Assembly (NCBI GenBank): GCA_000165345.1
Contig: CM000435.1
Coordinates: 416,001-480,000, forward strand
DNA: 64,000 nucleotides
Reading direction: 5' to 3'
Below are positions 6,316 to 53,113 of this stretch, piece by piece. Numbering within the stretch: the stretch's first letter is position 1; each line of letters begins with the position of its first letter. Position numbers and translations under genes: made by a program. Under the pieces are notes generated by a model. That model made no database searches. It worked only from the letters and a program-made list of their open reading frames with translations, and was not told where the DNA came from.

Positions 6316-9300
6316 ATGTCCTTAGATCCGAGTCAACTTTCGCAGCTGGAAGGGCTGTGTGAGTCTTTCTATGGGTAAGTTTACAAACAACTAGTGAAAG
6401 CAAAAAAGCGTTTTTAAAAGTGGGGTCTTAGGTTTTCACTAGGAATAGATCTTGTAAATTCTTGTGATTTTTAACTTTAATTTTTATTTTCTTAACTAAA
6501 ATTGCAGGGGAGATGTGAATCAGCAAAAACAGGCTCACGAGGTTTTGCTTCCCTTGACATGTAATCTTGGATGTCTGACTCAGCTCCAAGCTTTGCTTGC
6601 CCAAAGCAGCAATCCCCACGCCTTAATGTTTGCTGCAACAGGTCTTTCTAAGCTCTTTACGTCTTGTTGGGCTCAAATTCCAGATAATCAAAAAGAGGAA
6701 ACCAAAACATTTCTATTAAATTACCTCTATAAGTGTGGTCCTGATATGTTACGTTCAGCTCCTTATTTGGTTGGCCACTATGTTCGTCTTTTGGCTCAGT
6801 TGGTGAAATTCGGGCTTCTAGACTCCTTGTCTCCTAGGCCAACAATTACCGATCAAGTTGGGCAGTTTCTAAGTGCTTCCACTTCTCATTGGATCATTGG
6901 TTTAATAATCTTTACGACTTTGACTCAAGAGATGCAAACTTCTACAGGTTTATACTTTGCAAAGTATAGAAGGGCCGCAATACTATTCAGAGATACTTCT
7001 CTTCCAGTAATATTTCAGATTGCAATTAAAACTCTTCGTCAGTTCCACTTAGGAAGCGTTTCAGTTTCTACTCAGCATGAAGAGTATAGACTTCTTCGCC
7101 AGGTACTGCAATTAACCCTTTGCTGTCTTTCTTATGACTTTATGGGAACAGTACCTGATGAAACATCTGAGGAGCAGAATACAGTTATGATTCCCCATTC
7201 CTGGACAATTCTCAGGGAGGAATATATTCCCATAATATTCTTTGATATCTATGCAAAATGCTGCTCTCCGAACAGTTCCATGCCAGATTGTGCTTCAATC
7301 TGTCTCCAATGTCTCATCCTTTACTCCTCAGTTAGAAGATCCTTCTTCCCTACCCAAGCTGATAGAACTCGTTCTTTAGCAGCTCTAATGACTGGTACAG
7401 CTGGTATCATCCAAACTAAGATGGGCCTTGAACACGAGAGCTGCTATCATGAACTTTGCAGACTTTTGGGGAAGCTTAACACTGCAAACCAGCTCACAGA
7501 ACTCTCGTCTTCGGAAGCATTTGGACTCTGGATAGACCAGGTTTACAATTTTACTATTAAGTCTCTTGAGGAATGGAGCGTCTTACCAAACAGTAAGCAT
7601 TATCTCCTTGGTCTTTGGAGTCATATGGTTATCCCTTTACTCTACCAAGGGGATAGAGCTCCACAGAATCTTGAAAAGTATATCCATCATATAACAGTCA
7701 CCTTCATCCAAAGTAGGATGAAGCTTGCTGAGGCAATTGCTAGAGGCTCGGATGTAGAAGACCCTCTGGAAAGCGAAGTTGCAAGAACTGAGCAGCTTGA
7801 TGTTCTTTCTCAATTGAGTAGATGCCAATACCACGAAACTGCAGAATTCATTGTACAGCTCTTTGAACAGGTTACAGATGCAGCTAAAAACGGCAGCATT
7901 TCTCAGGATTGCTTTATTTCTCAAATTACCTGGTGTGTGTATATGCACGGAGCTTTAATTGGAGGACATAGCATTAAGTTAAGAAGACCTTTACTCCCTA
8001 GTGGCTCTTCATCCTCATCGGGAACTAGCAGACCAGATCAGAAGAACCAGGTATCACACCATGTTTTGAACGGAAAGCTCGCTAGACTTGTCTTTGGCCT
8101 CTCTCAACAAACTGACCAACTTCCAGAGACACCTGAGTCATTAGAATTGGCCTATCTCTATTTCTTGGAGCAGTTTAGAAAGGTTTGTCTCGGAGATTAC
8201 GCAAAACAATTTATTCAGCCTGAGACTGAGGACGCCACCTTGGCATCAATTCTGGGCGTCCAATCTGATGATGATGTTTTGAGCCTCATTATAAGCAAGA
8301 TTGGAAGGAATCTACAAGCCAAGAGTAATATGGAGAGTGTAGTTCAAAAGACTCTTTCTCTATTTCACGAATTGGTAGCTGGGATCTCGATCGTCCAGTA
8401 TACTGACAGAACTACCCATCTCATAGTTTCTGGACGACTTCTTCTCAAAAATGAACAAGTCAAGAAGATACTTTGCAACCATGCTTCTCCAGAGTTTGCT
8501 TTCCTGAACAATCCAAGATATGGTAGACATAGGACTTCTTACTATTTCACCCTATCAAAACTCTTGTTCTTAGAGTCAAAGGAGGAAGAGCCTGGAACTC
8601 AGCCTATAACAACTTTTGAAGACTTCATGAAACCTTTAGAGAAAGTTTTTACTTTGATCTGGGATGAAATAATCCTCGGAAACAATTCTTCGAATGGGGG
8701 GGGATATAATATTGGACAGTTCAGGGTTCCATTAATGGCTTTGGCAAGAGACTTAAGAGGCATTTGTATGGCTTGTGTAGGCCCTGAAAGCTACAACCAA
8801 CTTTTTAATTGGTTAGTAAATCGACCTAAACAGCTTGGACAGAGTAGAATTCATCTATTCACTTGGGCAGCTGACAAACTCTGGGAGGACTCTGATGTAA
8901 TGAATGCTTTGCTCAAGTTCATGGCCGAGTTTGTAGACAACAAATCCCAAAGAATAAACTTTGATAAAGCCTCTCCAAATGGAATTCTATTATTCAAAGA
9001 AGTTTCTTCATTAATTTGCACTTATGGCTCCAGAATCTTATCTAAACCTGATTCATCCTTCCAGAATATCTATAAGGAAAAGTATAAAGGTTTAGCTACA
9101 ACGTTAGCTATGCTCTGTCATGCTTTATCTGGAGGATATACAAATTTTGGAGTTTTTGAAGTTTATCAAGACCAATCACTGGAAAACGCTTTGCAACTTG
9201 CCTGTAGGATGTGTTTGGTGATTCCTGAGCATGATTTACAGTCATATATTAAGAGCCTCAAGTCTTATTATGAATTCTTAGAACTTGCAACTAGGTGCTT

Positions 9301-20357: not shown

Positions 20358-23300
20358 TTAGGCCAAAACCTTATCGGTATCAAATCTATGACTGCATTGA
20401 GCCTGGCAAGCTTTGACAACTATTCCTTGGATATCCTTTTGCACTCCATCGAATGCACTATTGCAACATAAATCACAAACCTCAATTTTGCACTTTTGAT
20501 CAGTTTCTGTACAAATGTCAAAGGCTTTACTAGTTCCAGAAATACATGTAGCGAGCTGATTAATGTATTCCTTTGTTGAATTTTCAGCATAGCTATCATT
20601 AATTGAACAAGCACTCTTGCATGAATTATAGTATGTTCTGTCTGTAATCATATTTGTGTAGTAATCGCAACATTCAGTACAGTAGTTATTAGTACAAGTG
20701 ACCGACTTTTGTGAATTAGATCCAAACATAGTTTCACAATGTTGTTCTCTCTGCAAAATATGAGTGTTCAAAGTACAAGATTTATAGATAGAATCAGTTT
20801 TCTCTTTATCTGTAGAATTTTCGACATCTTTATTGGAGTCAACTCTGAAAGGCTCAAGAGAGACTTTATCAAAGGCTGTTTCAGAACAGTTTTTGACACT
20901 AAGTCCTACTCTACCATGTGAGACTTGAGTATCTTTTTCGGTGACCTTAATAATCTCCTTAGTATTTCCATTGTACTTTGTTGAGTAAACATAGATTGTT
21001 GTACCTTCAAAGTTTACAAGAATACGATTCCATTCATTTTGTGTGAAACCAAACATGACCTTCTTTAACAGAGTAGTTTTAGCTTTAGTTTTCTTAACCA
21101 AAGTTGTGGATGTGTTTGAAACAATAACCTGATAATAATTGTCATTGTCAGTATATCTGAAAATTCCGGATACCTTTCCATTAGAACAAGGTGGATTAAA
21201 ATCGAAGGAGAAATAACCATTTTTGCAAGTATGAGTTTCTTTTAAGAGTATTCTAGATTCACCAGATGTCTTGACAACCATTGCATTGGTTCTTCCCTTG
21301 TATTCCTTAATATATTCCCAGTTACCATTAACATCGTTATTTTTAACAATATCATAAGTTGTCTCAAATGTTGATAAGTAACATTGTTTATAATTTGAGC
21401 ATCTTGGAGATCTTGGAGCTGGTGACATGAAGAATTTTTTGCAAGATTTGGCCTTAATTGAAACATTATCAAAGTATACGCCGCCAACGACTCCATTTGA
21501 ATAGAATGCAACAGTACCTGAAAGTAAGCCTTCATCTACAACTTGAAGTTTAACATGTCCAATCTTTGCGTAAATTCTATCTCTTTGTACTGTAATCTCT
21601 ACTTTTTGGAACTCTCCTTCTTTGAATTTGAAATCTTCTTTTGTATCTAAAATGTAAGTAATACCTTCTTTAAGTCTTAATAGTCTAATTCTCTCTTCTT
21701 CTTGGTTGAACTCAAGCAAATAGTAATTAGATAAGTCTCTAACTCTAAATGCAATACCAAAAATACCTGAGACTGGTGGATAGACTTCAGTAGTTAATGT
21801 AAAATCAAAGAATCTTCTGTTCTTAATTTGTGCAAAGGTTCCTCTTGGTGAATGTTCCGATGAACCAGTGATTGGAGAATTCTGTCCAAGCAACTTAGTT
21901 CTTCCATTAATTGCTGTGGTTGTATAACCCCAATCACTTGGTCCTCTTTGGGTTCTTGGCATATCATATACGGAAAATGTTTGTTCAAATGGCATTTTCT
22001 GTGTGTCTAATGTGAAACTTTGGAATCCAGTTTGTGAAGAGTGAATTGCTTCGACGTCGTCTAATTTATCAAGAAGTTCCTTAGTTATTGATTTATATAC
22101 ACCAGTAACCTTTAATAGTTCGTTTGCAATATGATCGACATTGTCAACAACATCCATTATCTTTGGTGATTGTGATTTTGTTAACATTTCTGCTGGCTTT
22201 AGTTTTCTTCTCATCTCTAATATTGCCATCTTTGACTCTTCTTGAGTTGCAAAACTTAAAGATGGATCCACACCATATGACTCATCAATATATTGTGAAG
22301 CTTCCTTCAAAATTTTACTAATGAAAGGCTCATTTGTTTTTCCTTCCCATAAATCTGTTTTGATAACTGGAGTGGAGACTTTAACTGGATTTTGTAATTT
22401 TTGTCCTTGTTTTGCCTGTTGATTTAGAGTTGTAGCGGTAGAGAGTTGATGTAGATCATTTCCTCCCTTTGAAATAACATCAATTGGACATTCCTTTGAA
22501 ATAGTACTAATTCTTAAACTTCTAGTTGGAATGCCTGATAATTTTTCTGACTCAATTTCATTCTTAGTTGATCCTTCGTATGAATTCTTTGGACCTTCCA
22601 AAGCTACATTGAACATTCCTCCTGTATTTGTAGAAATTACTCCAACTTGTAAAGCAGCTTTGCAAATTGAACTTTTTTCTGAGTAAACACCATCGCTTCC
22701 ATAAACCTTGGTTTTATACTCTGCACAACCTGGTGGGCATTGTACAATGATGTTTGTGTTAATTGGTCCTTCGAATATTGGATTTTTATATGCAACAGTG
22801 TCACAATCAATATCAACGTGATTAATTTGTTTTTGAGTTGGTACCACATTTGTTGAACAAACAATTCCAACAATATTTGAATTTTTTAAGTTGAAGAAAC
22901 TTAAATAATTTTCACTGAATCCAAGTCCTACAGCATCGTTTCCAAATAATGTTGTAGCAGTAGATTCTGGAGATGCCAAAGAGAGAACCAAGCTGGTCAG
23001 ATCTGTTGTTCCATCTCTTAAATCTTGATATGATCCTGTGCACTTTCCATCTAAACAACCATAATCAACAGCCAATGGAATACCGCTACCTTCAGATAAT
23101 TTGAATCCCATAATTCCTAATGCGCTCTTGATTCCAGAAATTTGTTCAATATTTCTAAGTACTAATGGCTCCATTCCAACATGTGCACAGTACTTTCTTA
23201 TATCTGAAACAGATGTAACTGAAATATATGATCCTGGATTTCCACCATCATTCCAAATATAATATGATGCTCCAAACTTAATATCACACCATACTCGAAT

Positions 23301-25028
23301 AGGTTCTGGAGCACATCTTGGTAATATCCAGTAGAAACCAGAAATTGCATTTGGATTTCTTGAAGCAATTGAAAAACAATCTTCTGCTGGGAGATTTGGC
23401 TCATCCCCCGGCTCATTTCCAACTCCAACAGAAATTTCGTCCTTAACTGCTCCTAAACCTTCTTTTAATTGTTTAGCATTTGAAATATAATCTTCTAAAC
23501 GGGATACATATTCTTTCTTATCAGTAAAACATTCATCAATCGATGGAAGCAAAGTATTAACTCTATCATTTAACACTCCAAGGTTTTTTGTTCTGGACAA
23601 AACATCTCTAGCTGCGCTCTTTACCATTTCAGATGCCTTAGAATTAAAATCTTCTACATAATTCAAAAAGTATTTATCTCTTGCATCTTTTGATAAGGCA
23701 GCATCTCTACAGAATGAAACCACAGATCTTAAATTATTTGTCATTAATTCAATTTCTCTAATACCATACAAATATTTGTTGGAGTATTTACCATATCTTG
23801 GATGTGGCTTTTCCATGACAATCTGAATGAAATCTGAAATTACTCCGTTCATCTCATTCAATGTTGTATTTGATGGATTACCCTCAACCTTTGTAATCTG
23901 TTTCATTTCGCCATCTACCTTTGCTGCGATAGAATAAGTAAATGGAGGAAATTCCCAATCAATTCTTAAATTTTTAAGTTGATAAGTCATATTAGCTGAC
24001 AAATTGATTGAAACCTTGTGTTCACCAGTACTTTCAAAAGCTGCTGATGCCCAATATGTCGCTATATCACTATCTATTGCTGCATCCACTGTATGTAATG
24101 CATCCATTGTGGAAGAAGCTGTTCCACTCAATTCCAACTTTGTTGTTCCAACTCCGAAACCTGCCTTGTTTATTTGATTAACACATGCATTTGTTCCTTT
24201 AACCTGTAATTGAGAATTTTCATTAAACTCCCAGAATGATCGACCATCTTCAGCCTGTTCTGCAATTTCACAATCTTGAATAAGCAAAGGAGAAGATCCA
24301 CTGAAGTCGCCATTTGCTACGATCAAACATTTTGGAGGATTACTTGCTGCACTGATTATTTGCCCATTTGGCCCCATTTTCCATAATTCTCTTCCATCCC
24401 CTGCAGAAATACCATATACACATGAATCTAAATCTACTTGAGCGAAGTCATCCTGAACTCTACCTCCAATGACCTGTAAGCAGTTGTCCCCTTTCTCGTC
24501 TGTAATTCCCGATATAATCATCGCTAATGGAGAACCTGATCCAAGAGCAACCAGCTGTCTAATACCAATATATTGGCTTGGCTTTGCCTTCATTTGGATT
24601 TTCACTGCTCTCACATCTCTTGAATGGTCGAACATGAAGTCTTCAGTAAATTCCTTCTCGTTCTGAGTTGCTCTTCTATTTGGAACTACAATTTCATAAT
24701 TAATTCCATCAGGAGAAACCTGGATTTGAGTTTCTCTTGGACTTGAGCTCCAAACTATTTTCAAACCAATTGCTTTTGCTGTTGCTGAGATAAAAGCTGT
24801 ATAAACAATTTGTTGTTCTGCTGAGAGGTTACTTGCGGACCTCCACTCGCTATTTCCCATATTCAATGCATTTGATGGGTCAAATTCTCCATTAAAACTG
24901 CTCCCTACTAAAGTTGAGCTAGAAATTGCCTTCTTGAAGAAGTAGTAGTTTGATTCACCATCTTTTGCAGTTACTATAAGAGAAATACTCAAAAATGCTA
25001 ACAAAAATGAAAATGTCTTCCACCTCAT
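20358..25028 (-). CDS. LCCL-domain multi-adhesive secreted protein of the apicomplexan CCp/LAP family (1556 aa, signal peptide).
   Basis: N-terminal signal peptide MRWKTFSFLLAFLSISLIVTA. Ricin-B/beta-trefoil-like segment (CLQVIGGRVQDD...ELWKMGPNGQI...SFWEFNENSQLQV). An LCCL domain by its signature (CPPGCAEYKTKVYGSDGVYSEKSSICKAALQVGVISTNTGGMFNVALEG). Several discoidin/lectin-like and FReD-like stretches. A Cys-rich C-terminal module (CTNNYCTECCDYY...CKIEVCDLCCNSAF...). Confidence 0.7.
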   Translation of the reverse strand: MRWKTFSFLLAFLSISLIVTAKDGESNYYFFKKAISSSTLVGSSFNGEFDPSNALNMGNSEWRSASNLSAEQQIVYTAFISATAKAIGLKIVWSSSPRETQIQVSPDGINYEIVVPNRRATQNEKEFTEDFMFDHSRDVRAVKIQMKAKPSQYIGIRQLVALGSGSPLAMIISGITDEKGDNCLQVIGGRVQDDFAQVDLDSCVYGISAGDGRELWKMGPNGQIISAASNPPKCLIVANGDFSGSSPLLIQDCEIAEQAEDGRSFWEFNENSQLQVKGTNACVNQINKAGFGVGTTKLELSGTASSTMDALHTVDAAIDSDIATYWASAAFESTGEHKVSINLSANMTYQLKNLRIDWEFPPFTYSIAAKVDGEMKQITKVEGNPSNTTLNEMNGVISDFIQIVMEKPHPRYGKYSNKYLYGIREIELMTNNLRSVVSFCRDAALSKDARDKYFLNYVEDFNSKASEMVKSAARDVLSRTKNLGVLNDRVNTLLPSIDECFTDKKEYVSRLEDYISNAKQLKEGLGAVKDEISVGVGNEPGDEPNLPAEDCFSIASRNPNAISGFYWILPRCAPEPIRVWCDIKFGASYYIWNDGGNPGSYISVTSVSDIRKYCAHVGMEPLVLRNIEQISGIKSALGIMGFKLSEGSGIPLAVDYGCLDGKCTGSYQDLRDGTTDLTSLVLSLASPESTATTLFGNDAVGLGFSENYLSFFNLKNSNIVGIVCSTNVVPTQKQINHVDIDCDTVAYKNPIFEGPINTNIIVQCPPGCAEYKTKVYGSDGVYSEKSSICKAALQVGVISTNTGGMFNVALEGPKNSYEGSTKNEIESEKLSGIPTRSLRISTISKECPIDVISKGGNDLHQLSTATTLNQQAKQGQKLQNPVKVSTPVIKTDLWEGKTNEPFISKILKEASQYIDESYGVDPSLSFATQEESKMAILEMRRKLKPAEMLTKSQSPKIMDVVDNVDHIANELLKVTGVYKSITKELLDKLDDVEAIHSSQTGFQSFTLDTQKMPFEQTFSVYDMPRTQRGPSDWGYTTTAINGRTKLLGQNSPITGSSEHSPRGTFAQIKNRRFFDFTLTTEVYPPVSGIFGIAFRVRDLSNYYLLEFNQEEERIRLLRLKEGITYILDTKEDFKFKEGEFQKVEITVQRDRIYAKIGHVKLQVVDEGLLSGTVAFYSNGVVGGVYFDNVSIKAKSCKKFFMSPAPRSPRCSNYKQCYLSTFETTYDIVKNNDVNGNWEYIKEYKGRTNAMVVKTSGESRILLKETHTCKNGYFSFDFNPPCSNGKVSGIFRYTDNDNYYQVIVSNTSTTLVKKTKAKTTLLKKVMFGFTQNEWNRILVNFEGTTIYVYSTKYNGNTKEIIKVTEKDTQVSHGRVGLSVKNCSETAFDKVSLEPFRVDSNKDVENSTDKEKTDSIYKSCTLNTHILQREQHCETMFGSNSQKSVTCTNNYCTECCDYYTNMITDRTYYNSCKSACSINDSYAENSTKEYINQLATCISGTSKAFDICTETDQKCKIEVCDLCCNSAFDGVQKDIQGIVVKACQAQCSHRFDTDKVLA

Positions 25029-40738: not shown

Positions 40739-41153
40739 TTTTACACTACTTTAATAAAATCTGTGCCTTTTTTTGCTTCAAAATTTTTAGGAAAATTAAA
40801 AAAAAAAAATACAAATAAAAAATATTGTGTGCATGCACATGAAATATTTGTATGCGACCCTTGAATATAAAGTAATTATGAAAGTAAAATTTCAACTCAA
40901 CTTTTGCCTTTAGATGCGTTTTTTGTGTTTGTAATGATGAGAATGAGTATTGTATGTTTGTTTCTGTTGATTTACGTTAACATTTGAGCTTATATTGCAT
41001 TGATTTCCTACACACTGAGAATCATAAGTTACAATTGCTTCAGTTTTCACTTGCTTAATACATTTTTCTCCTTCTTCCGTGAAACCCTAAAAATTGTAAT
41101 GAATTTAAATTAATTATCACAAAAAAAATTGATTATATTTTCTTTAACTTTTT

Positions 41154-44100
41154 TTAACTTACAATTGGACACCTAAACTTTGCCTGAGCAAATCTTAAGC
41201 AATGATTCTTTTTTAAAATTAACCCTGGTGGACAAATTCTTTTGTGACCTGAGTACTCAATCATAATACATTTATTTCCGGCTTCTACAAATCCTTTTGG
41301 ACATCTTGAAATCGGGTCAAGATATATCTTATTTTCACATGTATCATTTGGACATTCCTTCTTTAACATAGAGAAACATTGTCCATTTACCATCATGGAA
41401 TCTCTTGGACAGGAATTTACCGTGGAATGGTATTTTTCCCAAACACAAATTGCTTGATCTAGTTTATATCCATTAGGACAACTAACCTCAGGTTCTACAA
41501 CTTTCTGAGTTTTACAATCCTTGTGTTGACAAATCTTATCTTTATAAAGTACACACTTATCTCCACTTAGAATATACCCTTCAGAGGGGCAAATCATATC
41601 TTTTGGAACAATCTCGGATTCCTTACAAGTGTTTCCATTAACTAATTCTGTTCCATTTGGACAAACTTTATTGGGAGTTATTGTTTTCAATTCTTCACAA
41701 TTATTGTTTTGACATTCCTTGACTGAGTAAGTGAGACAACTTCCATTAGAAATAATAGATCCTTTTGGACAAGAGATTTGTCCATTATTAAATAGTTTTT
41801 TCGTGCAAATTGGTCCTCCGTAGTTCAAATTTTGAGAGTTCTTTTGGAATCCAGAAGGACAACTTAAGACTGGGGGGAAAGTTTCTTGGGCTAAACATCC
41901 TCCTCTTGGACAAATCGACTCAACTTCTCTAATACAATAAGAATTCATAAGATTTGTTCCAAGGGGACATTTCAATTGAGGAAGATGATGAACTCTTTTT
42001 GAACAATTTCCTCCAGGGAAAAGTGAATACTGATTAGGACACTCAATAATAGGAGGAAAATGAACTTTTTTCTCACATTGATTATTCAAACATTCCTTAT
42101 AGACATACTTGGCACATAAATCATCCTGAATAGTGAAATCCTTGGGACAAGTAAGAATAGAAGGACTTCTTTTGATACTTTCACATTGATTTCTGGAAAT
42201 CAAAGTTCCTTGCTTACATGTAATTCTTGGTGGAATTGAAATAGTAACTGAGCAGTTTCCTCCTGAACATTCTTTAGATACCTGGTGAACGCATTGATCT
42301 CCTACTAATTTGAACGGTTTAATACATTTCAAAATTTGAGGTCCAATATTAATTTTTTCGCAAAGTTTGGTTTTTGAGTTTAGGGTTTCATTCTCATCAC
42401 ATTTAAACTCTGGAGGCTCTTTATGAATGATCTCACAATTACTATATGAACAAATCTTAACAATTCTTTCAATACAAATTTGTTGATTTGCACTAGAAAG
42501 TTCTCCTCTTTCACAGGTTTTTTCTGGAAAGACTTCATGCTTAAATATACAAACCCCATCTTCAAAAACAAATCCTGGAGGACAAATTCGTATTGAATCG
42601 ATAATATTTCTCAAAGTACAACCTTCTGGAGGACAAATTTTGGTAGTTACTTGAATACAATTTCCTTCTTCCATAATATATCCCTCTTCACAAATTAATT
42701 CTGGAGCTTTTCTAACAATAGAGGCACATTTATTATCTTCAGTCATACTAGAGCCTGGAGGACAAATGTTAACTTTTGGGATCATAAATTCCTCAAAACA
42801 CGTTTCCAGGGTTTTTGTATGGTCTGAGCAGATTCTTGTCATTGGAAGATGTTCTTTCTTCATACACTCTTTTCCAATATTAATTGATCCCTGTGGACAG
42901 GAAATCTTTGGAGGAAAAGCCTCAGTTCTAGTACAAGTTTTATGATTTCTTATGGCTTGAGAACAAATTCCTGAGTTTCTTTGGCCATAAAATCCAAGAT
43001 TAGAAGTATTTATGGTATTGACTCCACTTCCACAAGGAACAGGAACAATACTTACCTCAGAACAATCATATTCAACCAATTTTTGGCATTGTTTGATCTC
43101 ACTCAAATAATATCCCTTGGGACATTCATAGGAAACATCTATAAAACTCTCAACCAGACAGGAATCTCCAATTTTAGTTCCTTTGAGACATTTATATTCA
43201 AGAGGAAGAGGCTTTCTTCCTCCACACATTCCTGAATCAAGTCCAATAGTTCCTTCTGGACATTGAGGTTTTGAGTCTGAAATATTAATTTGAACACAAT
43301 CTCCATATTTTCCTTCCCTTCCAAATCCTTCTGGACAAAAAGAACTAGGTTTTGAGGTCTTAAAGCATTCATCTCCGTTATCCAAAAATCCAGGAGGACA
43401 AATTTTACTTCTTTGTATTGTTTTATGACAACTCATATCTAATTCATTGATTTCATATCCTACTGGACAATTTAACTCTCCCTCAGCTCTTTTCTCTTTT
43501 ATACATTTATTTTCTATTAAAGAATATCCTTCTGGACAATTTGATTTGGCTCTAGTTTCTATAATACAGAAATTCTCATTTGTCGAATCTTCTCTAGATC
43601 CTTCTGGGCATATTTTTGGAATAACTTCAGTATAAATACATTCTCCTAGTGAATTCAAGGTACTGGGTTCCTGACAAACCAAATCTGGAGATCTTGTAGT
43701 AATTTTTGTACACTTTTGTGTCTCAGGATTATATTTGTATCCTTCAATACATTGCTTTTCCGGGGATTCTATAACTGAGCAATAACCTCCAGAATCTAAA
43801 GAATTCAAAGGACATTTTCTTTTTGAAGTATTTTCACTAGTTAAAATACAAACAGAGTCAGATAATTCTGAACCTGAGGGGCATACTGTCTCAGCTGGAG
43901 ATAGAATAACCTCTTCACATTGTCCATTCACTAAACTCTGGAGATTTGGACAGGTTCTTCTTGGGGATACAAAACTAGCACATTCATTTTCTCCAATCTC
44001 TTCGTATCCTGGGGGACAAACTTGGATATTTCTTTCATACCCAACACAAGTCGAAGTACTTTGTTCAAATTTAGAATTTGGAGGACAAATAATATTTGGT

Positions 44101-45290
44101 TCAATGGATAATATTTCCTGGCAAAAATGGTTTTCTGGGTTATATTTAGTTCCAGCAGGACATTCCCATTCTCCTTTTACTTTTTGTAAACACAAATCCT
44201 TAGATCTGAAAGAATTAGCAGGACATTCCTTTTCTAAGGTAATTTCTGAAATACAAAGCTTATTAGATTCATCAAAGTATGAATATTTATTTGGACAAGA
44301 TATTTCTGGTTCAACTGACAAAGTGTTTAAACAAACTTTGCTACCATTATGAATAGTTTGCTCATATCCCTCTGGACAATGAAACAAAGGTTCTTGGTAA
44401 TTTACGCATTGATCTTCAACTTCAACAAATCCTATGGGACAAACTCTATTATTAATTCTGGACATTGAAATACAAGTCTGACCCTCTAAAAAGGACCCAG
44501 GAGGGCACTCTAATGTAGGATTTGAATAGTTAATATACCTACAAAGAGATTGATGTCTAACATTCTCAAGCTGAGTCCCTTTTGGACAAATATATTCTGG
44601 TTGAATCCATGTAGCACATTTATCTTCATCAATATCCTTAAATCCTTCGGGACAAATCTTTGGCTCAATCTGATCTTGAATACACATCTTTAAAGAAGCA
44701 TCAAAAACAAAAGGTTCCGGACAAACTACAGTTGGAAGAGCTGCCTTTCTTTCAATACATAAATTTGTGTTAGAGTCAAATTTGTATGGTTCTTGACAAA
44801 TTTTCATCGGCTCTCTAGCCATCGCACAGGTGTCTCTAAAATTAATGCTCCCTGGAGGACAAATTGCCTTAACTTCCTCTTTGTAGTAACATTTACCTGT
44901 ATTATAATCCATTTCTAAGCCATCAAGACAATATTTTTCCTTTTCAGCAAAGACTTCTTTAACGCATTGTTTGTCTTGCATTTGAAAACCTGTAGGACAT
45001 TCCTTAAGGAGAGGCTCAGCCAAATAGCACTCTGATCCTTTGGATACAAATCCTTCTGGACAAACTGGAATCTTTTGTGTCTCAATTTGATGAACACAAA
45101 TTCCATTTACTAGTGCAAAATTACCTGGGCAGGTCTCCACAGGTACTCTCACATACTGAGAGTTAGTTGGAATACTAAAAAAAAGAAGAACTGAGGTCAA
45201 ACAAATTCTTGCAATTCCTGATAAACTAATCAAAATCATTTTTAGATCTCCGGTTTTATGTACCGGTATCTTCATGCTTTGTTTCCTCAT
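41154..45290 (-). CDS. Cysteine-rich secreted repeat protein of the oocyst-wall-protein (COWP) type; about 1378 aa, with more than 30 tandem Cys-bracketed modules.
   Basis: N-terminal hydrophobic signal (MILISLSGIARICLTSVLLFFSIPTNS). The whole body is built from about 35-45 aa units of the form C-P-x-G-[FY]...C...C (CPEGFVSKGSEC, CPTGFQMQDKQC, CPPGSINFRDTC, CPIGFVEVEDQC, CPEGYEQT..., CPPGFLDNGDEC...), as in COWP type I/II repeats. Cys spacing is highly regular. Confidence 0.6.
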   Translation of the reverse strand: MRKQSMKIPVHKTGDLKMILISLSGIARICLTSVLLFFSIPTNSQYVRVPVETCPGNFALVNGICVHQIETQKIPVCPEGFVSKGSECYLAEPLLKECPTGFQMQDKQCVKEVFAEKEKYCLDGLEMDYNTGKCYYKEEVKAICPPGSINFRDTCAMAREPMKICQEPYKFDSNTNLCIERKAALPTVVCPEPFVFDASLKMCIQDQIEPKICPEGFKDIDEDKCATWIQPEYICPKGTQLENVRHQSLCRYINYSNPTLECPPGSFLEGQTCISMSRINNRVCPIGFVEVEDQCVNYQEPLFHCPEGYEQTIHNGSKVCLNTLSVEPEISCPNKYSYFDESNKLCISEITLEKECPANSFRSKDLCLQKVKGEWECPAGTKYNPENHFCQEILSIEPNIICPPNSKFEQSTSTCVGYERNIQVCPPGYEEIGENECASFVSPRRTCPNLQSLVNGQCEEVILSPAETVCPSGSELSDSVCILTSENTSKRKCPLNSLDSGGYCSVIESPEKQCIEGYKYNPETQKCTKITTRSPDLVCQEPSTLNSLGECIYTEVIPKICPEGSREDSTNENFCIIETRAKSNCPEGYSLIENKCIKEKRAEGELNCPVGYEINELDMSCHKTIQRSKICPPGFLDNGDECFKTSKPSSFCPEGFGREGKYGDCVQINISDSKPQCPEGTIGLDSGMCGGRKPLPLEYKCLKGTKIGDSCLVESFIDVSYECPKGYYLSEIKQCQKLVEYDCSEVSIVPVPCGSGVNTINTSNLGFYGQRNSGICSQAIRNHKTCTRTEAFPPKISCPQGSINIGKECMKKEHLPMTRICSDHTKTLETCFEEFMIPKVNICPPGSSMTEDNKCASIVRKAPELICEEGYIMEEGNCIQVTTKICPPEGCTLRNIIDSIRICPPGFVFEDGVCIFKHEVFPEKTCERGELSSANQQICIERIVKICSYSNCEIIHKEPPEFKCDENETLNSKTKLCEKINIGPQILKCIKPFKLVGDQCVHQVSKECSGGNCSVTISIPPRITCKQGTLISRNQCESIKRSPSILTCPKDFTIQDDLCAKYVYKECLNNQCEKKVHFPPIIECPNQYSLFPGGNCSKRVHHLPQLKCPLGTNLMNSYCIREVESICPRGGCLAQETFPPVLSCPSGFQKNSQNLNYGGPICTKKLFNNGQISCPKGSIISNGSCLTYSVKECQNNNCEELKTITPNKVCPNGTELVNGNTCKESEIVPKDMICPSEGYILSGDKCVLYKDKICQHKDCKTQKVVEPEVSCPNGYKLDQAICVWEKYHSTVNSCPRDSMMVNGQCFSMLKKECPNDTCENKIYLDPISRCPKGFVEAGNKCIMIEYSGHKRICPPGLILKKNHCLRFAQAKFRCPIVS

Positions 45291-45528
45291 CCTTATGAGG
45301 CTGGCTTTCCTTCTATTTTATTCAGTAACAGAAAAACCTACTCGCAAGACAAGTAAACTCTAATCACGCCTCTACACCTATCTCTAAATCATCTTATTAC
45401 TCGCATTTTCATAGTTATAACTTTTTCACATTCTCTATTTTACGATTTTGACACGAGGGTAATTTTGGCGGGAAATGTGCAAGATAGCAAAGACTTTGGT
45501 AAATTTAACGAGTGTGGGACATTAAAAG

Positions 45529-47601
45529 TTGATATTCAGGATAAGAGAAATATACGGGATGATTCTGTTCGGGATTTTGTTTTGTTTTTTTGTTACGATA
45601 TTCTTTTCAATTTCCTCATTATTCTTTTTGTTATGTTTGGTTATTCGTAGAATTTATATGAGGAGATTAAATAATTATGCGACAACAAGGAATATTGCCG
45701 TTTTAGTTATTGGAGATATAGGTAGGAGTCCAAGGATGCAAAACCATGCTTTGTGTATTTCCAAGAGATTTTGCTCCAAGTTAGATTCTTTGGGGAAAAC
45801 TGGAAAGCTAGTAAATAGAAAGGGGAATAAAGATATTAACCAGAAGCTGGACGACAAAATCAATAATAACCACGTTTATTTGGTTGGATATAATGAAACT
45901 ATTTGTAGTTCAGCTGTGACTGGAGACAAAAATATTACTTTACAAGGTATTGAGAAAACTTTTGTGGAACAATACAGAAAGGTTCTCCCATTGTGGGCTT
46001 TTCTATTCATGAAAGTAGTTGAACAGTCATTGAGGATTTTCATAACAATCATGAAAATTCCAAACCTCTCTGGGATAGTATTACAAGCTCCTCCATCTAT
46101 ACCGGCAATTCCTATTGCTTTGTTAGTTTCTTATATTAAAGGAGCTCATTTAATAATTGACTGGCATAATTATGGTCATACTTTGTTAATAGCCGATAAA
46201 AGAGAGAATAGTCAATTCTCTTTGATCAGGAGAATATACCAACAAATTTTGGTTAATAGTTACAAAATATTAGAGTTCTCGTTAGGAAGACTTTCACATT
46301 CTTCATTTTGTGTTTCTAAAGCCATGCAGGAAGACTTAGCAAAAAGGGGAATTCAAGCAACAGTGGTATATGATAGGCCTAATGATGACTTTAAACCTTT
46401 GGATTCTATCTCAAAGAGACATTCTGTCTTGTTTAAATACTTTGGCAGTTTAGAGAATGAGATTTGTTCTGAGAATTCTAGTTTAGGAGATCAATGCACT
46501 CAAAATACCTTCAATAGAAAGGCTCAAGGAGAAAATAAAAGTAAAACGAAATCCAGAGAAGAGAAAAAATCTGCTCAAAATAACAAGAAAAATAACACAA
46601 AGACAAAAGACGCTTTATTATACGATGAATCTTTGACAAATGTCAAGGATTTGGAATCTGTATCTTTAAATAAATCAGTCTTAGATATGCATCAAATTAG
46701 TGAGAGCATTAATACAAATCTCACAGAACAAGGAAAAGGTTCTGCTAGGACCTCTTTGTTTTCTAAGTCTTTAATAGAGGAAGAATTCTTCTTTGAAATA
46801 GATTCAAGAATCTTGGATGAAATCTCTTCCAACTTCAAAAGTCAGGACTTGAAGGAACTATTAACAAGAGATGATTTATTTTTTGATAATCATATTTTCG
46901 AGACTTCACCTGTAACTGATTTAGGAATTTCTTGCGATCAAATTGATAATAAGATTTCATTAAAGATACAACTCAAGAAGAACAGGCCAGCAGTTTTGAT
47001 AACTTCCACTAGTTGGACTCCTGATGAAGATCTTAACTTATTACTTGAAGGCCTTGTGGAATATGATAAACTTGTTTCAAAACAATTAGGAAACGATAAC
47101 TTATCTAAGAAGCTTCCTGACATATTTCTTATCATTACAGGTAAAGGCCCAAACAAGAATTCATGGTTAGAAAAAGCTTCAAAAACTAAGATGAAACATG
47201 TGAGTATTAGAACAGTCTTTGTTGAAGCTGACGACTATCCAAAGCTGCTAGCTTGTTCAGACTTGGGAATTTCTATGCATTACTCTTCTAGCGGGTTGGA
47301 TCTCCCAATGAAAGTAGTTGATATGCTTGGAGCAGGAATTCCGATAATTTCATTCTCATATCCAACTATTAACGAGCTTTTAAAGAGTGAGAAACTTGAG
47401 TTGTTATTTTCAAACCCTCAAGAGCTTTGTTCTAGAATTACTACTTTACTTGAGGGTTTCAATTCAAGTCTTGAAAAAGAAGCTCTGCCTTCTCCAAATT
47501 TGAACAAGATCCTCAAGTCTAACAACTCAAAGAAAAGAGAAACTTTCTATCAGGAATGGAACAATTCGGCTGTCTATCATTTCGATGAAATGGTAATTTA
47601 A
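45529..47601 (+). CDS. ALG1: ALG1 chitobiosyldiphosphodolichol beta-1,4-mannosyltransferase (GT33), with a large low-complexity insertion.
   Basis: N-terminal TM, then the ALG1 signature IAVLVIGDIGRSPRMQNHALCIS, LQAPPSIPAIPIALLVS, HLIIDWHNYGHTLL, and C-terminal LPMKVVDMLGAGIPIISFSYPTINELLK. An Asn/Lys/Ser-rich insert of about 180 aa (roughly 46450-46980) splits the two Rossmann halves. An alternative start exists at 45559. Confidence 0.75.
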   Translation: MIFRIREIYGMILFGILFCFFVTIFFSISSLFFLLCLVIRRIYMRRLNNYATTRNIAVLVIGDIGRSPRMQNHALCISKRFCSKLDSLGKTGKLVNRKGNKDINQKLDDKINNNHVYLVGYNETICSSAVTGDKNITLQGIEKTFVEQYRKVLPLWAFLFMKVVEQSLRIFITIMKIPNLSGIVLQAPPSIPAIPIALLVSYIKGAHLIIDWHNYGHTLLIADKRENSQFSLIRRIYQQILVNSYKILEFSLGRLSHSSFCVSKAMQEDLAKRGIQATVVYDRPNDDFKPLDSISKRHSVLFKYFGSLENEICSENSSLGDQCTQNTFNRKAQGENKSKTKSREEKKSAQNNKKNNTKTKDALLYDESLTNVKDLESVSLNKSVLDMHQISESINTNLTEQGKGSARTSLFSKSLIEEEFFFEIDSRILDEISSNFKSQDLKELLTRDDLFFDNHIFETSPVTDLGISCDQIDNKISLKIQLKKNRPAVLITSTSWTPDEDLNLLLEGLVEYDKLVSKQLGNDNLSKKLPDIFLIITGKGPNKNSWLEKASKTKMKHVSIRTVFVEADDYPKLLACSDLGISMHYSSSGLDLPMKVVDMLGAGIPIISFSYPTINELLKSEKLELLFSNPQELCSRITTLLEGFNSSLEKEALPSPNLNKILKSNNSKKRETFYQEWNNSAVYHFDEMVI

Positions 47602-51082: not shown

Positions 51083-53113
51083 ATGGTTTTGATATCATGG
51101 GAATGTGTGTGTGATCTGACACATCCTGGACAGTCTTTGTATGTGGTAGGGAGCCACCCAAGACTGGGAGCTTGGAAGATTACAACTGAGCAAGAGGAAA
51201 ATAAGCCTATTCGACTTATTACTGACAAACTTTCCTATCCAGTCTGGAGGACAAGCGAGCCTATTAGGATTCGAGGTGCATGTCTTTTAGAGTATAAGTT
51301 TATTATTAGTAAGGAAACTGAACCGTACGAGAATCTAGAGTGGGAGCCAATTCAAGGAAACCGATACTTACAAGTCGACGAGAATTTTCCAGAATATAAG
51401 TATATTATTCATTGTAGTTGGGGAAATATTTCTAAAAGCACGATAAGGTTTGAAGAATATTTCGGTAATGATGGCAAAGTTGATGATTACTCATATAGAG
51501 CAAAGCCTGGAGCAAGGTATATTTCACCGGAAAATGCAGAAATATATTCTGAGGAGGATGAAGAACCTAAAGACAGAGGTGCTTATGAAAGCTCTGTAAC
51601 ACCTCCGCTAATGTTGAGTAGGACAGGGTCCAGATTAAGACTTCTATTGGACAGATCCAGATTTATTTTGAGCACCAAAGGTGACATCAACCAATATTAT
51701 ACTTTGGAAAATACTATAGGAAGGGGTTCTTGGGGTGAGGTAAAAATAGCTGTCCAGAAAGGAACCAGAATTCGTAGGGCAGCAAAAAAGATTCCAAAGT
51801 ACTTTGTTGAAGATGTTGATCGTTTTAAACAGGAAATCGAAATTATGAAGTCTTTGGATCATCCAAACATAATTAGGCTATACGAAACTTTTGAAGATAA
51901 TACTGATATATATTTGGTTATGGAACTATGTACTGGAGGAGAGCTTTTTGAAAGAGTTGTACACAAGAGAGTTTTCAGAGAAAGCGATGCTGCAAGAATT
52001 ATGAAAGATGTTTTAAGCGCTGTAGCTTATTGCCATAAGTTAAATGTGGCTCATAGGGATTTGAAACCTGAGAATTTCCTTTTCTTGACAGATTCTCCAG
52101 ATTCTCCCTTAAAATTGATTGACTTTGGCTTGGCAGCTAGATTCAAGCCTGGAAAAATGATGAGGACAAAGGTTGGAACTCCATATTATGTGAGCCCGCA
52201 GGTTTTGGAAGGTCTTTATGGCCCAGAGTGTGATGAATGGTCAGCAGGAGTAATGATGTACGTTTTGCTTTGTGGCTACCCTCCTTTCAGTGCACCTACA
52301 GATTCTGAGGTAATGCTTAAGATCAGAGAAGGAACATTTACATTTCCAGAAAAAGACTGGCTTAATGTTTCTCCTCAGGCAGAATCTTTAATAAGGAGGC
52401 TGTTGACAAAGTCTCCAAAACAAAGAATTACTTCTTTGCAAGCATTAGAACATGAGTGGTTTGAGAAACAACTTTCTTCATCTCCAAGGAACTTATTGCT
52501 AGATAATGTAATCTCTAACTTTAGAAGGTTCCAGGGCCTTTCAAGATTAAAAAAGATTGCTTTAACATTAATAGCTCAAAACATTGATGAAAGAGATATC
52601 CTAGATTTACACGACACATTTATGGAATTGGATACAAGTAGAGATGGAACGCTGAGCAGAGCCGAGATCATTGAAGGAATTAATAGAACAGGTTGTAGTC
52701 CAACAATTGGGATCGATGCTCTTCTTGACGAAATTGATCCTGAAGGTACTGATACTATTTCTTATACAGACTTTATTGCAGCTTGCATTCAAGAGCGGCA
52801 AATGTCCCATGAAAGTGCATGCAAAGCGGCATTTAGAGTATTTGACATTGATGGAGATGGACAGATTAGTAATATAGAATTTCTCAAGGTCATGTCTCTT
52901 TCTAGTAAGGCTAAAAAATCAGACGATGAACTAGCTCAAGAACTGAGCGAATTTATGAAATCAGGAGATTTAGATAAGGATGGAACGATTAATTTCGATG
53001 AGTTCTGCCATGTGATGAGAAGAGTCCCATCCAAATTTCTCCTTGGGGAGGCTTCTGATGACACAATAAATATGATGAAAAGATGTTCCTCTAGAACTAA
53101 CATTAATTTATAG
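51083..53113 (+). CDS. Calcium-dependent protein kinase with an N-terminal CBM20 starch-binding module (TgCDPK2-type architecture): CBM20, then Ser/Thr kinase, then 4 EF-hands.
   Basis: N-terminus VLISWECVCDLTHPGQSLYVVGSHPRLGAWKITTEQEENKPIRLITD...YPVWRTSEPI...LLEYKFIISKETEPYENLEWEPIQGNRYLQV is the CBM20 pattern (GQ.L.V.G....LG.W ... EYKF ... WE.G.NR). Kinase: GRGSWGEVKIAVQK...HRDLKPENFLF...DFGLA...GTPYYVSPQVL. EF-hands: DTSRDGTLSRAEI, DPEGTDTISYTDF, DIDGDGQISNIEF, DLDKDGTINFDEF. Confidence 0.85.
   Translation: MVLISWECVCDLTHPGQSLYVVGSHPRLGAWKITTEQEENKPIRLITDKLSYPVWRTSEPIRIRGACLLEYKFIISKETEPYENLEWEPIQGNRYLQVDENFPEYKYIIHCSWGNISKSTIRFEEYFGNDGKVDDYSYRAKPGARYISPENAEIYSEEDEEPKDRGAYESSVTPPLMLSRTGSRLRLLLDRSRFILSTKGDINQYYTLENTIGRGSWGEVKIAVQKGTRIRRAAKKIPKYFVEDVDRFKQEIEIMKSLDHPNIIRLYETFEDNTDIYLVMELCTGGELFERVVHKRVFRESDAARIMKDVLSAVAYCHKLNVAHRDLKPENFLFLTDSPDSPLKLIDFGLAARFKPGKMMRTKVGTPYYVSPQVLEGLYGPECDEWSAGVMMYVLLCGYPPFSAPTDSEVMLKIREGTFTFPEKDWLNVSPQAESLIRRLLTKSPKQRITSLQALEHEWFEKQLSSSPRNLLLDNVISNFRRFQGLSRLKKIALTLIAQNIDERDILDLHDTFMELDTSRDGTLSRAEIIEGINRTGCSPTIGIDALLDEIDPEGTDTISYTDFIAACIQERQMSHESACKAAFRVFDIDGDGQISNIEFLKVMSLSSKAKKSDDELAQELSEFMKSGDLDKDGTINFDEFCHVMRRVPSKFLLGEASDDTINMMKRCSSRTNINL

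Follow-up and report, generated by a model that had tools for sequence, protein, structure and literature searches.

Gene structure and identity of COWP2

In this study, we analysed a stretch of 64,000 nucleotides (nt) of Cryptosporidium parvum DNA (GCA_000165345.1, contig CM000435.1, positions 416,001 to 480,000 of the forward strand; hereafter the window) and a gene in it that encodes a Cys-rich oocyst wall protein. A preliminary description of the window had assigned this gene to positions 41154-45290. An open reading frame (ORF) of 1378 amino acids (aa) lies there on the minus strand (41154..45290), and an exact-sequence look-up matched its product without any difference to EAK90221.1/XP_628357.1/AAR28686.1, deposited under the name "oocyst wall protein 2 [Cryptosporidium parvum Iowa II]". 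The gene is COWP2 (cgd7_1800). It is already known, having been named in 2004 and localised in 2025 (Bacchetti et al. 2025, PMC12548878); Templeton et al. 2004 is reportedly the source of the name (AAR28686.1). The preliminary description was right about the ORF, but the last 9 nt of its span (41162..41154) belong to an intron and a second exon (41086..40910) had been missed. We hold with high confidence that the locus is cowp2 (cgd7_1800) of C. parvum and that this gene has two exons and encodes a secreted structural oocyst wall protein of 1434 aa.

Exon 1 (41163..45290, minus strand) comprises codons 1-1376 and was delimited by the ORF and the identity of its product; the orthologues keep M1 and the N-terminal residues but not M18. 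It is followed by a phase 0 intron of 76 nt (41087..41162, minus strand) with the borders GTAAGT...TTTTAG and an A+T content of 87%, within which sits the stop codon of the unspliced ORF (41156..41154). Exon 2 (40910..41086, minus strand) has 58 codons plus the stop TAA (40912..40910) and encodes the peptide QVKTEAIVTYDSQCVGNQCNISSNVNVNQQK. The 1378-aa ORF ends with ...RCPIVS*, in the middle of a CPxG module, and the junction reads TGT CCA ATT / GTAAGT...TTTTAG / GGT TTC. Splicing at 41162..41087 restores the full module CPIGFTEEGEKC. Exon 2 thus finishes the split module CPI/GFTEEGEKC and continues with C-x15-C-x4-C and a His/Lys-rich tail.

At this position C. bovis and C. andersoni also have an intron that begins with a GTAAGT donor, of 159 nt and 63 nt respectively, followed in both by a conserved in-frame exon, and exon 2 is likewise conserved in the proteins of C. 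ubiquitum, C. canis and C. felis. Exon 2 aligned with the C-terminus of COWP1, CIKQVKTEAIVTYDSQCVGNQCN against CVKKVITTPIVSYETTCIGPTCN, and the terminal Cys gaps of spliced COWP2 (10,11,16,5) are those of COWP1. The splice is supported because the module is restored, the intron position is conserved, the COWP1 C-terminus aligns and the terminal Cys spacing matches. We infer from these comparisons that COWP2 is spliced to give a 1434-aa product, and the spliced translation is identical to the newer model QOY40498.1. Three lengths of the COWP2 model have been deposited (1361, 1378 and 1434 aa), the first two of which end inside the intron; the deposited C. bovis model (P0005) is likewise truncated at the intron.

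The preliminary description had placed the gene in the COWP family, and this placement was borne out. Orthologues named oocyst wall protein 2 were found in C. ubiquitum (83% identity), C. canis (74%), C. felis (63%), C. bovis (52%) and C. andersoni (43%); the orthologues are collinear. The best paralogue was COWP1, with 27% identity and a phmmer E value of 2.5e-127, and BLASTP aligned the two proteins across aa 46-1382 (E 1e-129). In both C. bovis and C. andersoni the genes follow one another as TRAPP, glycosyltransferase, COWP2, small gene and ARID, and COWP2 in the window is likewise flanked by glycosyltransferase and ARID genes, in surroundings of 30-35% G+C that are dense with long ORFs. 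The protein has a predicted signal peptide, no candidate transmembrane segment in its mature part, the Cys spacing of the family, repeats of both types (I and II), and similarity to COWP1. His-rich stretches alternating with type II repeats, a COWP1 trait that is optional for the family, were not present in COWP2. The family assignment is correct because the database identity is exact and the orthologues, the paralogy with COWP1 and the gene order all agree with it.

Cys modules and repeat arrays

The 1378-aa ORF encodes 122 Cys residues (8.9%), about three times the proportion in the next most Cys-rich ORF of the window (3.1%), and the spliced protein has 125. Of the gaps between successive Cys of the mature protein, 80% measure 10-13 aa; shuffled sequences (n=2000) averaged 13% and reached 24% at most. 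COWPs have been defined by tandem arrays with a Cys at roughly each 10th-12th residue (PMC12548878; also a 2026 preprint). Peaks of Cys autocorrelation fell at lags of 23, 46, 69/70 and 138. The more than 30 CPxG[FY] modules of the preliminary description hold as a total of modules, but the strict CPxG[FY] motif occurs only 16 times in the spliced protein, which contains 43 CP, 30 CPxG and 23 CPxG[FYS] motifs (29 CPxG and 22 CPxG[FYS] in the unspliced ORF).

The N-terminal region, aa 1-44 (45159..45290, minus strand), resembles a signal peptide. It has a hydrophobic core at about aa 18-40 and a likely cleavage site after TNS44/Q45; the call was made by hydropathy and the cleavage site was placed by the -3/-1 rule. 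The region of aa 16-41 is the sole Kyte-Doolittle 19-residue segment above 1.6 (maximum 2.12), and no further candidate membrane span was found in mature COWP2, where no 19-residue window outside aa 16-41 exceeded 1.6. Q45-Y46 is invariant among orthologues. The hydrophobic segment at aa 18-40, together with the conserved TNS/QY, fits a cleaved signal peptide and a secreted, unanchored protein. The preliminary description had named a lack of a signal peptide as a reason to abandon the family call; a signal-peptide-like N-terminus is present.

The type I array spans aa 54-742 (43065..45131, minus strand) and consists of 30 two-Cys modules of the form C-P-x-G-[FYST]-x4-9-C-x9-11, 20-27 aa in length (mean 23.0). 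Three modules make up a six-Cys type I unit of 67-72 aa, and nine such units follow one another with Cys gaps of x,12,x,10,x,10. An irregular linker that still contains Cys extends from aa 743 to 890 (42621..43064, minus strand); its Cys gaps are 8,10,23,10,12,11,12,10,12,12,12,11,8,5, and aa 753-776 form a 23-aa Cys-free stretch. The type II array, delimited by unit alignment, occupies aa 891-1405 (41000..42620, minus strand, with the intron within this span) and has eight six-Cys units, seven of 59-66 aa and a terminal one of 88 aa. All eight open with Cys gaps of 12, 11-13 (18 in one unit), 12 and 11. The closing gaps are 8,5 in seven units and 10,11,16,5 in the terminal unit. The C-terminal tail, aa 1406-1434 (40913..40999, minus strand), reads CNISSNVNVNQQKQTYNTHSHHYKHKKRI and is His/Lys-rich at its end. 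His makes up 1.7% of COWP2 overall and only the last ~12 residues are His/Lys-rich; the orthologues also carry His/Lys-rich tails.

Both types of repeat, I and II, have been described as six-Cys repeats, type II being the shorter (PMC4514997), and the unit lengths of COWP2 (67-72 and 59-66 aa) agree with this description, from which our definitions of the two types were taken second-hand. Units of 35-45 aa, as initially proposed, do not exist in COWP2: the unit is the two-Cys module of ~23 aa, grouped by six Cys into units of 67-72 or 59-66 aa. The Cys periodicity that led to the whole ORF being called a tandem array is real, but it does not extend to the signal peptide (aa 1-44) or the linker (aa 743-890).

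Alternative readings and constancy of the repeats

COWP2 could instead be a generic EGF-like or growth-factor-receptor Cys-rich adhesion protein or ligand, with CPxG[FY]...C corresponding to the C-terminal hairpin of an EGF domain. EGF-like/cEGF (PF12662) and growth-factor-receptor repeats share with COWP2 an extracellular, disulfide-stabilised C-x-x-G-[FY]...C beta-hairpin. COWP1 and a distant relative reach the Pfam gathering score of cEGF through many summed weak stretches (P0007, 51.7 bits; P0010, 37.4 bits), a 2026 preprint annotates 'GFR-CR' domains in COWP4 and COWP6, and the EGF arrays of LRP2, thrombomodulin, factor Xa and Notch are among the non-significant Foldseek matches of the COWP2 models. 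However, COWP2 itself matched no Pfam family at E<=1, cEGF and CBM_14 included; it is unmatched by the PF12662 and PF00008 profiles. A PDB sequence search gave no match at E<=1, and structural comparison gave none at E<=0.001. The module of COWP2 has two Cys where an EGF domain has six, and any homology with EGF repeats is putative. The top homologues, which the preliminary description had allowed might turn out to be EGF-like, are all COWPs, and published tagging puts COWP2 in the wall. An EGF or growth-factor-receptor protein is therefore very improbable, and this reading was rejected on the missing profile match, the two-Cys module and the COWP homologues.

A chitin-binding wall protein is more improbable still. 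Several database entries for the COWP2 cluster (members P0016, P0019 and P0022) carry the name 'Chitin-binding type-2 domain containing protein', and C. ubiquitum COWP4 gave a marginal CBM_14 match of 25 bits (cut-off 22.1). Neither CBM_14 (PF01607) nor any other Pfam family matched COWP2 at E<=1, and this candidate was rejected on that result. The name 'chitin-binding type-2' is probably an over-annotation, made by a profile permissive enough to pick up Cys at regular spacing. We know of no report of chitin in the Cryptosporidium oocyst wall.

The preliminary description had also expected extreme periodicity in the DNA and, with it, variation in repeat number that would make the gene a typing locus. 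No such periodicity was seen with Tandem Repeats Finder, a search for direct repeats or self-blastn. Within the gene, Tandem Repeats Finder reported a single row, a 20-nt, two-copy repeat (42449..42468). The direct repeats measure 15-45 nt, have 63-89% identity and match the motif TGTCCnnnnGG, and the best self-blastn matches were 18 nt exact and 45 nt at 76%. Self-blastp of the protein gave no off-diagonal match at 1e-3; the repeats are therefore visible only as a pattern of Cys, Pro and Gly.

The expected variation was not found in the protein sequences compared. COWP2 has the same length in C. parvum, C. hominis and C. tyzzeri, which differ by substitutions only, and five same-length variants carry 7-21 substitutions, none of them at Cys. 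All 125 Cys are kept in C. parvum, C. hominis, chipmunk genotype I, C. ubiquitum and C. canis, and 124 of the 125 in C. felis and C. andersoni. Among seven full-length orthologues, down to 43% identity, indels measure 1-9 aa. These results are consistent with old, diverged repeats in constant number. The "COWP" typing locus of the literature is the original COWP gene (COWP1). It has been typed by restriction fragment length polymorphism (including RsaI digestion) or sequencing, not by repeat number. A fast-evolving repeat gene, with a repeat number that varies between isolates and a length-polymorphic typing locus, has only the general expectation for tandem-repeat genes in its favour and is contradicted by the lack of DNA repeats similar enough for slippage or unequal exchange, by the equal lengths in C. 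parvum, C. hominis and C. tyzzeri and by the constant Cys and small indels down to 43% identity; it was rejected as already refuted for the available sequences, and we give it practically no chance. COWP2 is not length-polymorphic; its repeats are ancient and each Cys is strongly constrained.

Proposed wall assembly, distant relatives and known oocyst wall proteins

COWPs are produced in female stages, held in wall-forming bodies and secreted after fertilisation, according to the literature, and expression of the COWP genes as a group is highest late, at 48-72 h, together with the sexual stages (PMC3734150, PMC3305300). E2F-like motifs are over-represented upstream of COWP genes (PMC3734150). 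A candidate E2F-like motif, TTTCCCGCCAAAA, lies at 45463..45475 (minus strand), 173 nt upstream of the COWP2 ATG, in a 238-bp region that COWP2 shares with the divergent group-1 glycosyltransferase gene (45529..47601); the core of the motif occurs 12 times in the window. This putative element agrees with the motifs reported for COWP genes.

As a secreted structural protein of the wall, COWP2 would be directed into the endoplasmic reticulum by its signal peptide. Each module may then fold into a short beta-hairpin stapled by a disulfide. Nearly every Cys is invariant across the COWP2 orthologues while most other residues vary freely, which is the pattern that would be expected of disulfide-stapled modules with little hydrophobic core. 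If the modules are stapled hairpins, the chain would be a rod, long and stiff, resistant to proteases and with little hydrophobic core. This rod could be locked into the inner wall by extensive disulfide bonding within the chain and possibly between chains. We modelled the type II region (534 aa) and the type I region (216 aa) with AlphaFold2, both from 8-sequence alignments. Both models are all-beta, consisting of strings of short beta-hairpins with one hairpin per C...C loop, at low confidence.

CRISPR-tagged COWP2 has been observed at the oocyst suture, on the inner face, and in the residual body, and was accessible only after excystation (PMC12548878). The tag was designed with a guide RNA lying 38 bp upstream from the stop codon, a protospacer adjacent motif at codon 1373 and a 3' homology arm 116 bp downstream (PMC12548878). 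In the window, codon 1373 is AGG (41174..41172), the start of the protospacer is 38 nt upstream of 41156, and the 3' homology arm maps inside exon 2. Read against our gene model, the design is compatible only with the unspliced stop codon; therefore the COWP2-mNeon and COWP2-HA fusions probably do not contain the last 58 residues. C-terminal tags or antibodies based on the 1378-aa model, which is in wide use, miss this conserved 58-aa end. The suture is the gate of excystation and COWP2 is one of three reported suture markers, and the correct gene model therefore matters for functional work. The residual-body signal has been reported only for COWP2, and the truncation of the fusion might bear on it.

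Several points weigh against the view of COWP2 as a spliced, disulfide-locked wall protein. The splicing of the intron is judged from conservation and the newer gene models. The disulfides and their pairing are putative. Structure prediction was of low confidence, with a mean predicted local distance difference test (pLDDT) score of 58 for the type II region and 62.5 for the type I region and a predicted template modelling score (pTM) of 0.22-0.23; a Foldseek search of the PDB with both models returned nothing at E<=0.001, and its top matches (phage or virus fibres and EGF arrays) were uninterpretable. The lack of a Pfam match for COWP2 at E<=1 points the same way. The published localisation may describe a COWP2 that lacks its last 58 aa, and the function given to COWP2 is presumed.

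Two other genes of the window were observed. A 1556-aa ORF at 20358..25028 (minus strand), ~16 kb from COWP2, encodes LCCL, discoidin (F5/8 type C) and 3-keto-disaccharide-hydrolase-like domains. We take it to resemble an apicomplexan LCCL-domain (CCp-type) adhesive protein, a class linked to sexual stages. At 51083..53113 (plus strand) lies a gene for a calcium-dependent protein kinase with a kinase domain, EF hands and an N-terminal CBM_20 starch-binding domain (E 1.5e-11).

When 1.84 billion representative proteins were searched exhaustively, only 272 relatives of COWP2 emerged at E<=0.001. After COWP2 and COWP1, giants of 3,400-4,100 aa ranked best, and a Pseudoalteromonas protein belongs to one of their clusters; relatives were also found in Vitrella and Piridium. 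The best match outside Cryptosporidium was a metagenomic protein of 4088 aa (P0025), with a phmmer E value of 1.6e-61 over aa 560-1376 of COWP2. The Pseudoalteromonas sp. T1lg23B protein (WP_105169424.1) has 3566 aa and 7.2% Cys, with 80% of its Cys gaps at 10-13 aa, and scored 262 bits against mature COWP2. Its gene lies at 8001..18701 of L003 (NZ_PQBZ01000039.1). It is part of an F-type conjugation cluster and is flanked by thioredoxin-like, TraV and TraC genes to one side and by S26-peptidase and TrbC genes to the other.

These giant proteins of marine bacteria consist of the two-Cys C-P-x-G-[YF]...[GN]-x-C module that also makes up COWP2, with 80-84% of the Cys gaps at 10-13 aa. They scored 262-310 bits against mature COWP2 and at most -30 bits once the non-Cys residues had been shuffled with the Cys kept. 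Since the similarity was lost on this shuffle, the shared feature is the whole C-P-x-G-[YF] module and not Cys spacing alone. The giants differ from COWP2 in being two to three times as long, in not having the type II signature and in being 22% identical; the likeness may stem from common descent or from convergence. We put forward, as tentative proposals that we think unlikely, that the COWP module may share ancestry with the giants of bacterial conjugative elements and, separately, that exon 2 may be needed for the suture to assemble correctly. If the first is true, shared ancestry of the module would imply a transfer between domains behind the oocyst wall protein family, and the module would not be an apicomplexan or chromerid invention. 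If exon 2, with the last module, C-x4-C and His/Lys tail, is needed for suture assembly, the residual-body signal could be an effect of the truncated tag. Cryptosporidium, Apicomplexa, oocysts and Pseudoalteromonas all go unmentioned in a 2026 preprint that deals with Cys-rich repeats and horizontal gene transfer.

That the same architecture would recur in other wall proteins, as the preliminary description anticipated, is true and has been documented for COWP1-9 and for the oocyst wall proteins (OWPs) of Toxoplasma and Eimeria (PMC4514997). COWP3-9, the Toxoplasma TgOWPs and the Eimeria OWPs have, like COWP2, a signal peptide, a Cys spacing of ~11/12 aa and CPxG modules; for this comparison a COWP4 orthologue was inspected here and the OWPs were taken from PMC4514997. 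All of these proteins are shorter than COWP2, and the relatives inspected do not have the 8,5 type II signature. TgOWPs have been reported to contain no type II repeats (PMC4514997).

The best paralogue is COWP1 (cgd6_2090), the founding oocyst wall protein, which is collinear with COWP2 from end to end and has 124 Cys against 125. Both consist of a type I array, a break, a type II array with the signature 12,11,8,5,12 and the terminal gaps 10,11,16,5. The type I gaps of COWP1 are (11,12,11,10,11,10)n in strict 65-aa units, whereas the units of COWP2 measure 67-72 aa, and the break of COWP1 (...8,9,65) corresponds to the linker of COWP2. COWP1 reaches 1623 aa because of inserts of 26-90 aa between its type II units, whereas COWP2 has no such inserts and a spacing of 11-18 aa. 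The inserts of COWP1 have been described as histidine-rich (PMC4514997); unlike COWP1, COWP2 retains only a short His/Lys tail. Published localisations put COWP1 across the inner wall but COWP2 at the suture (PMC12548878). The C-terminal motif is conserved between the two proteins.

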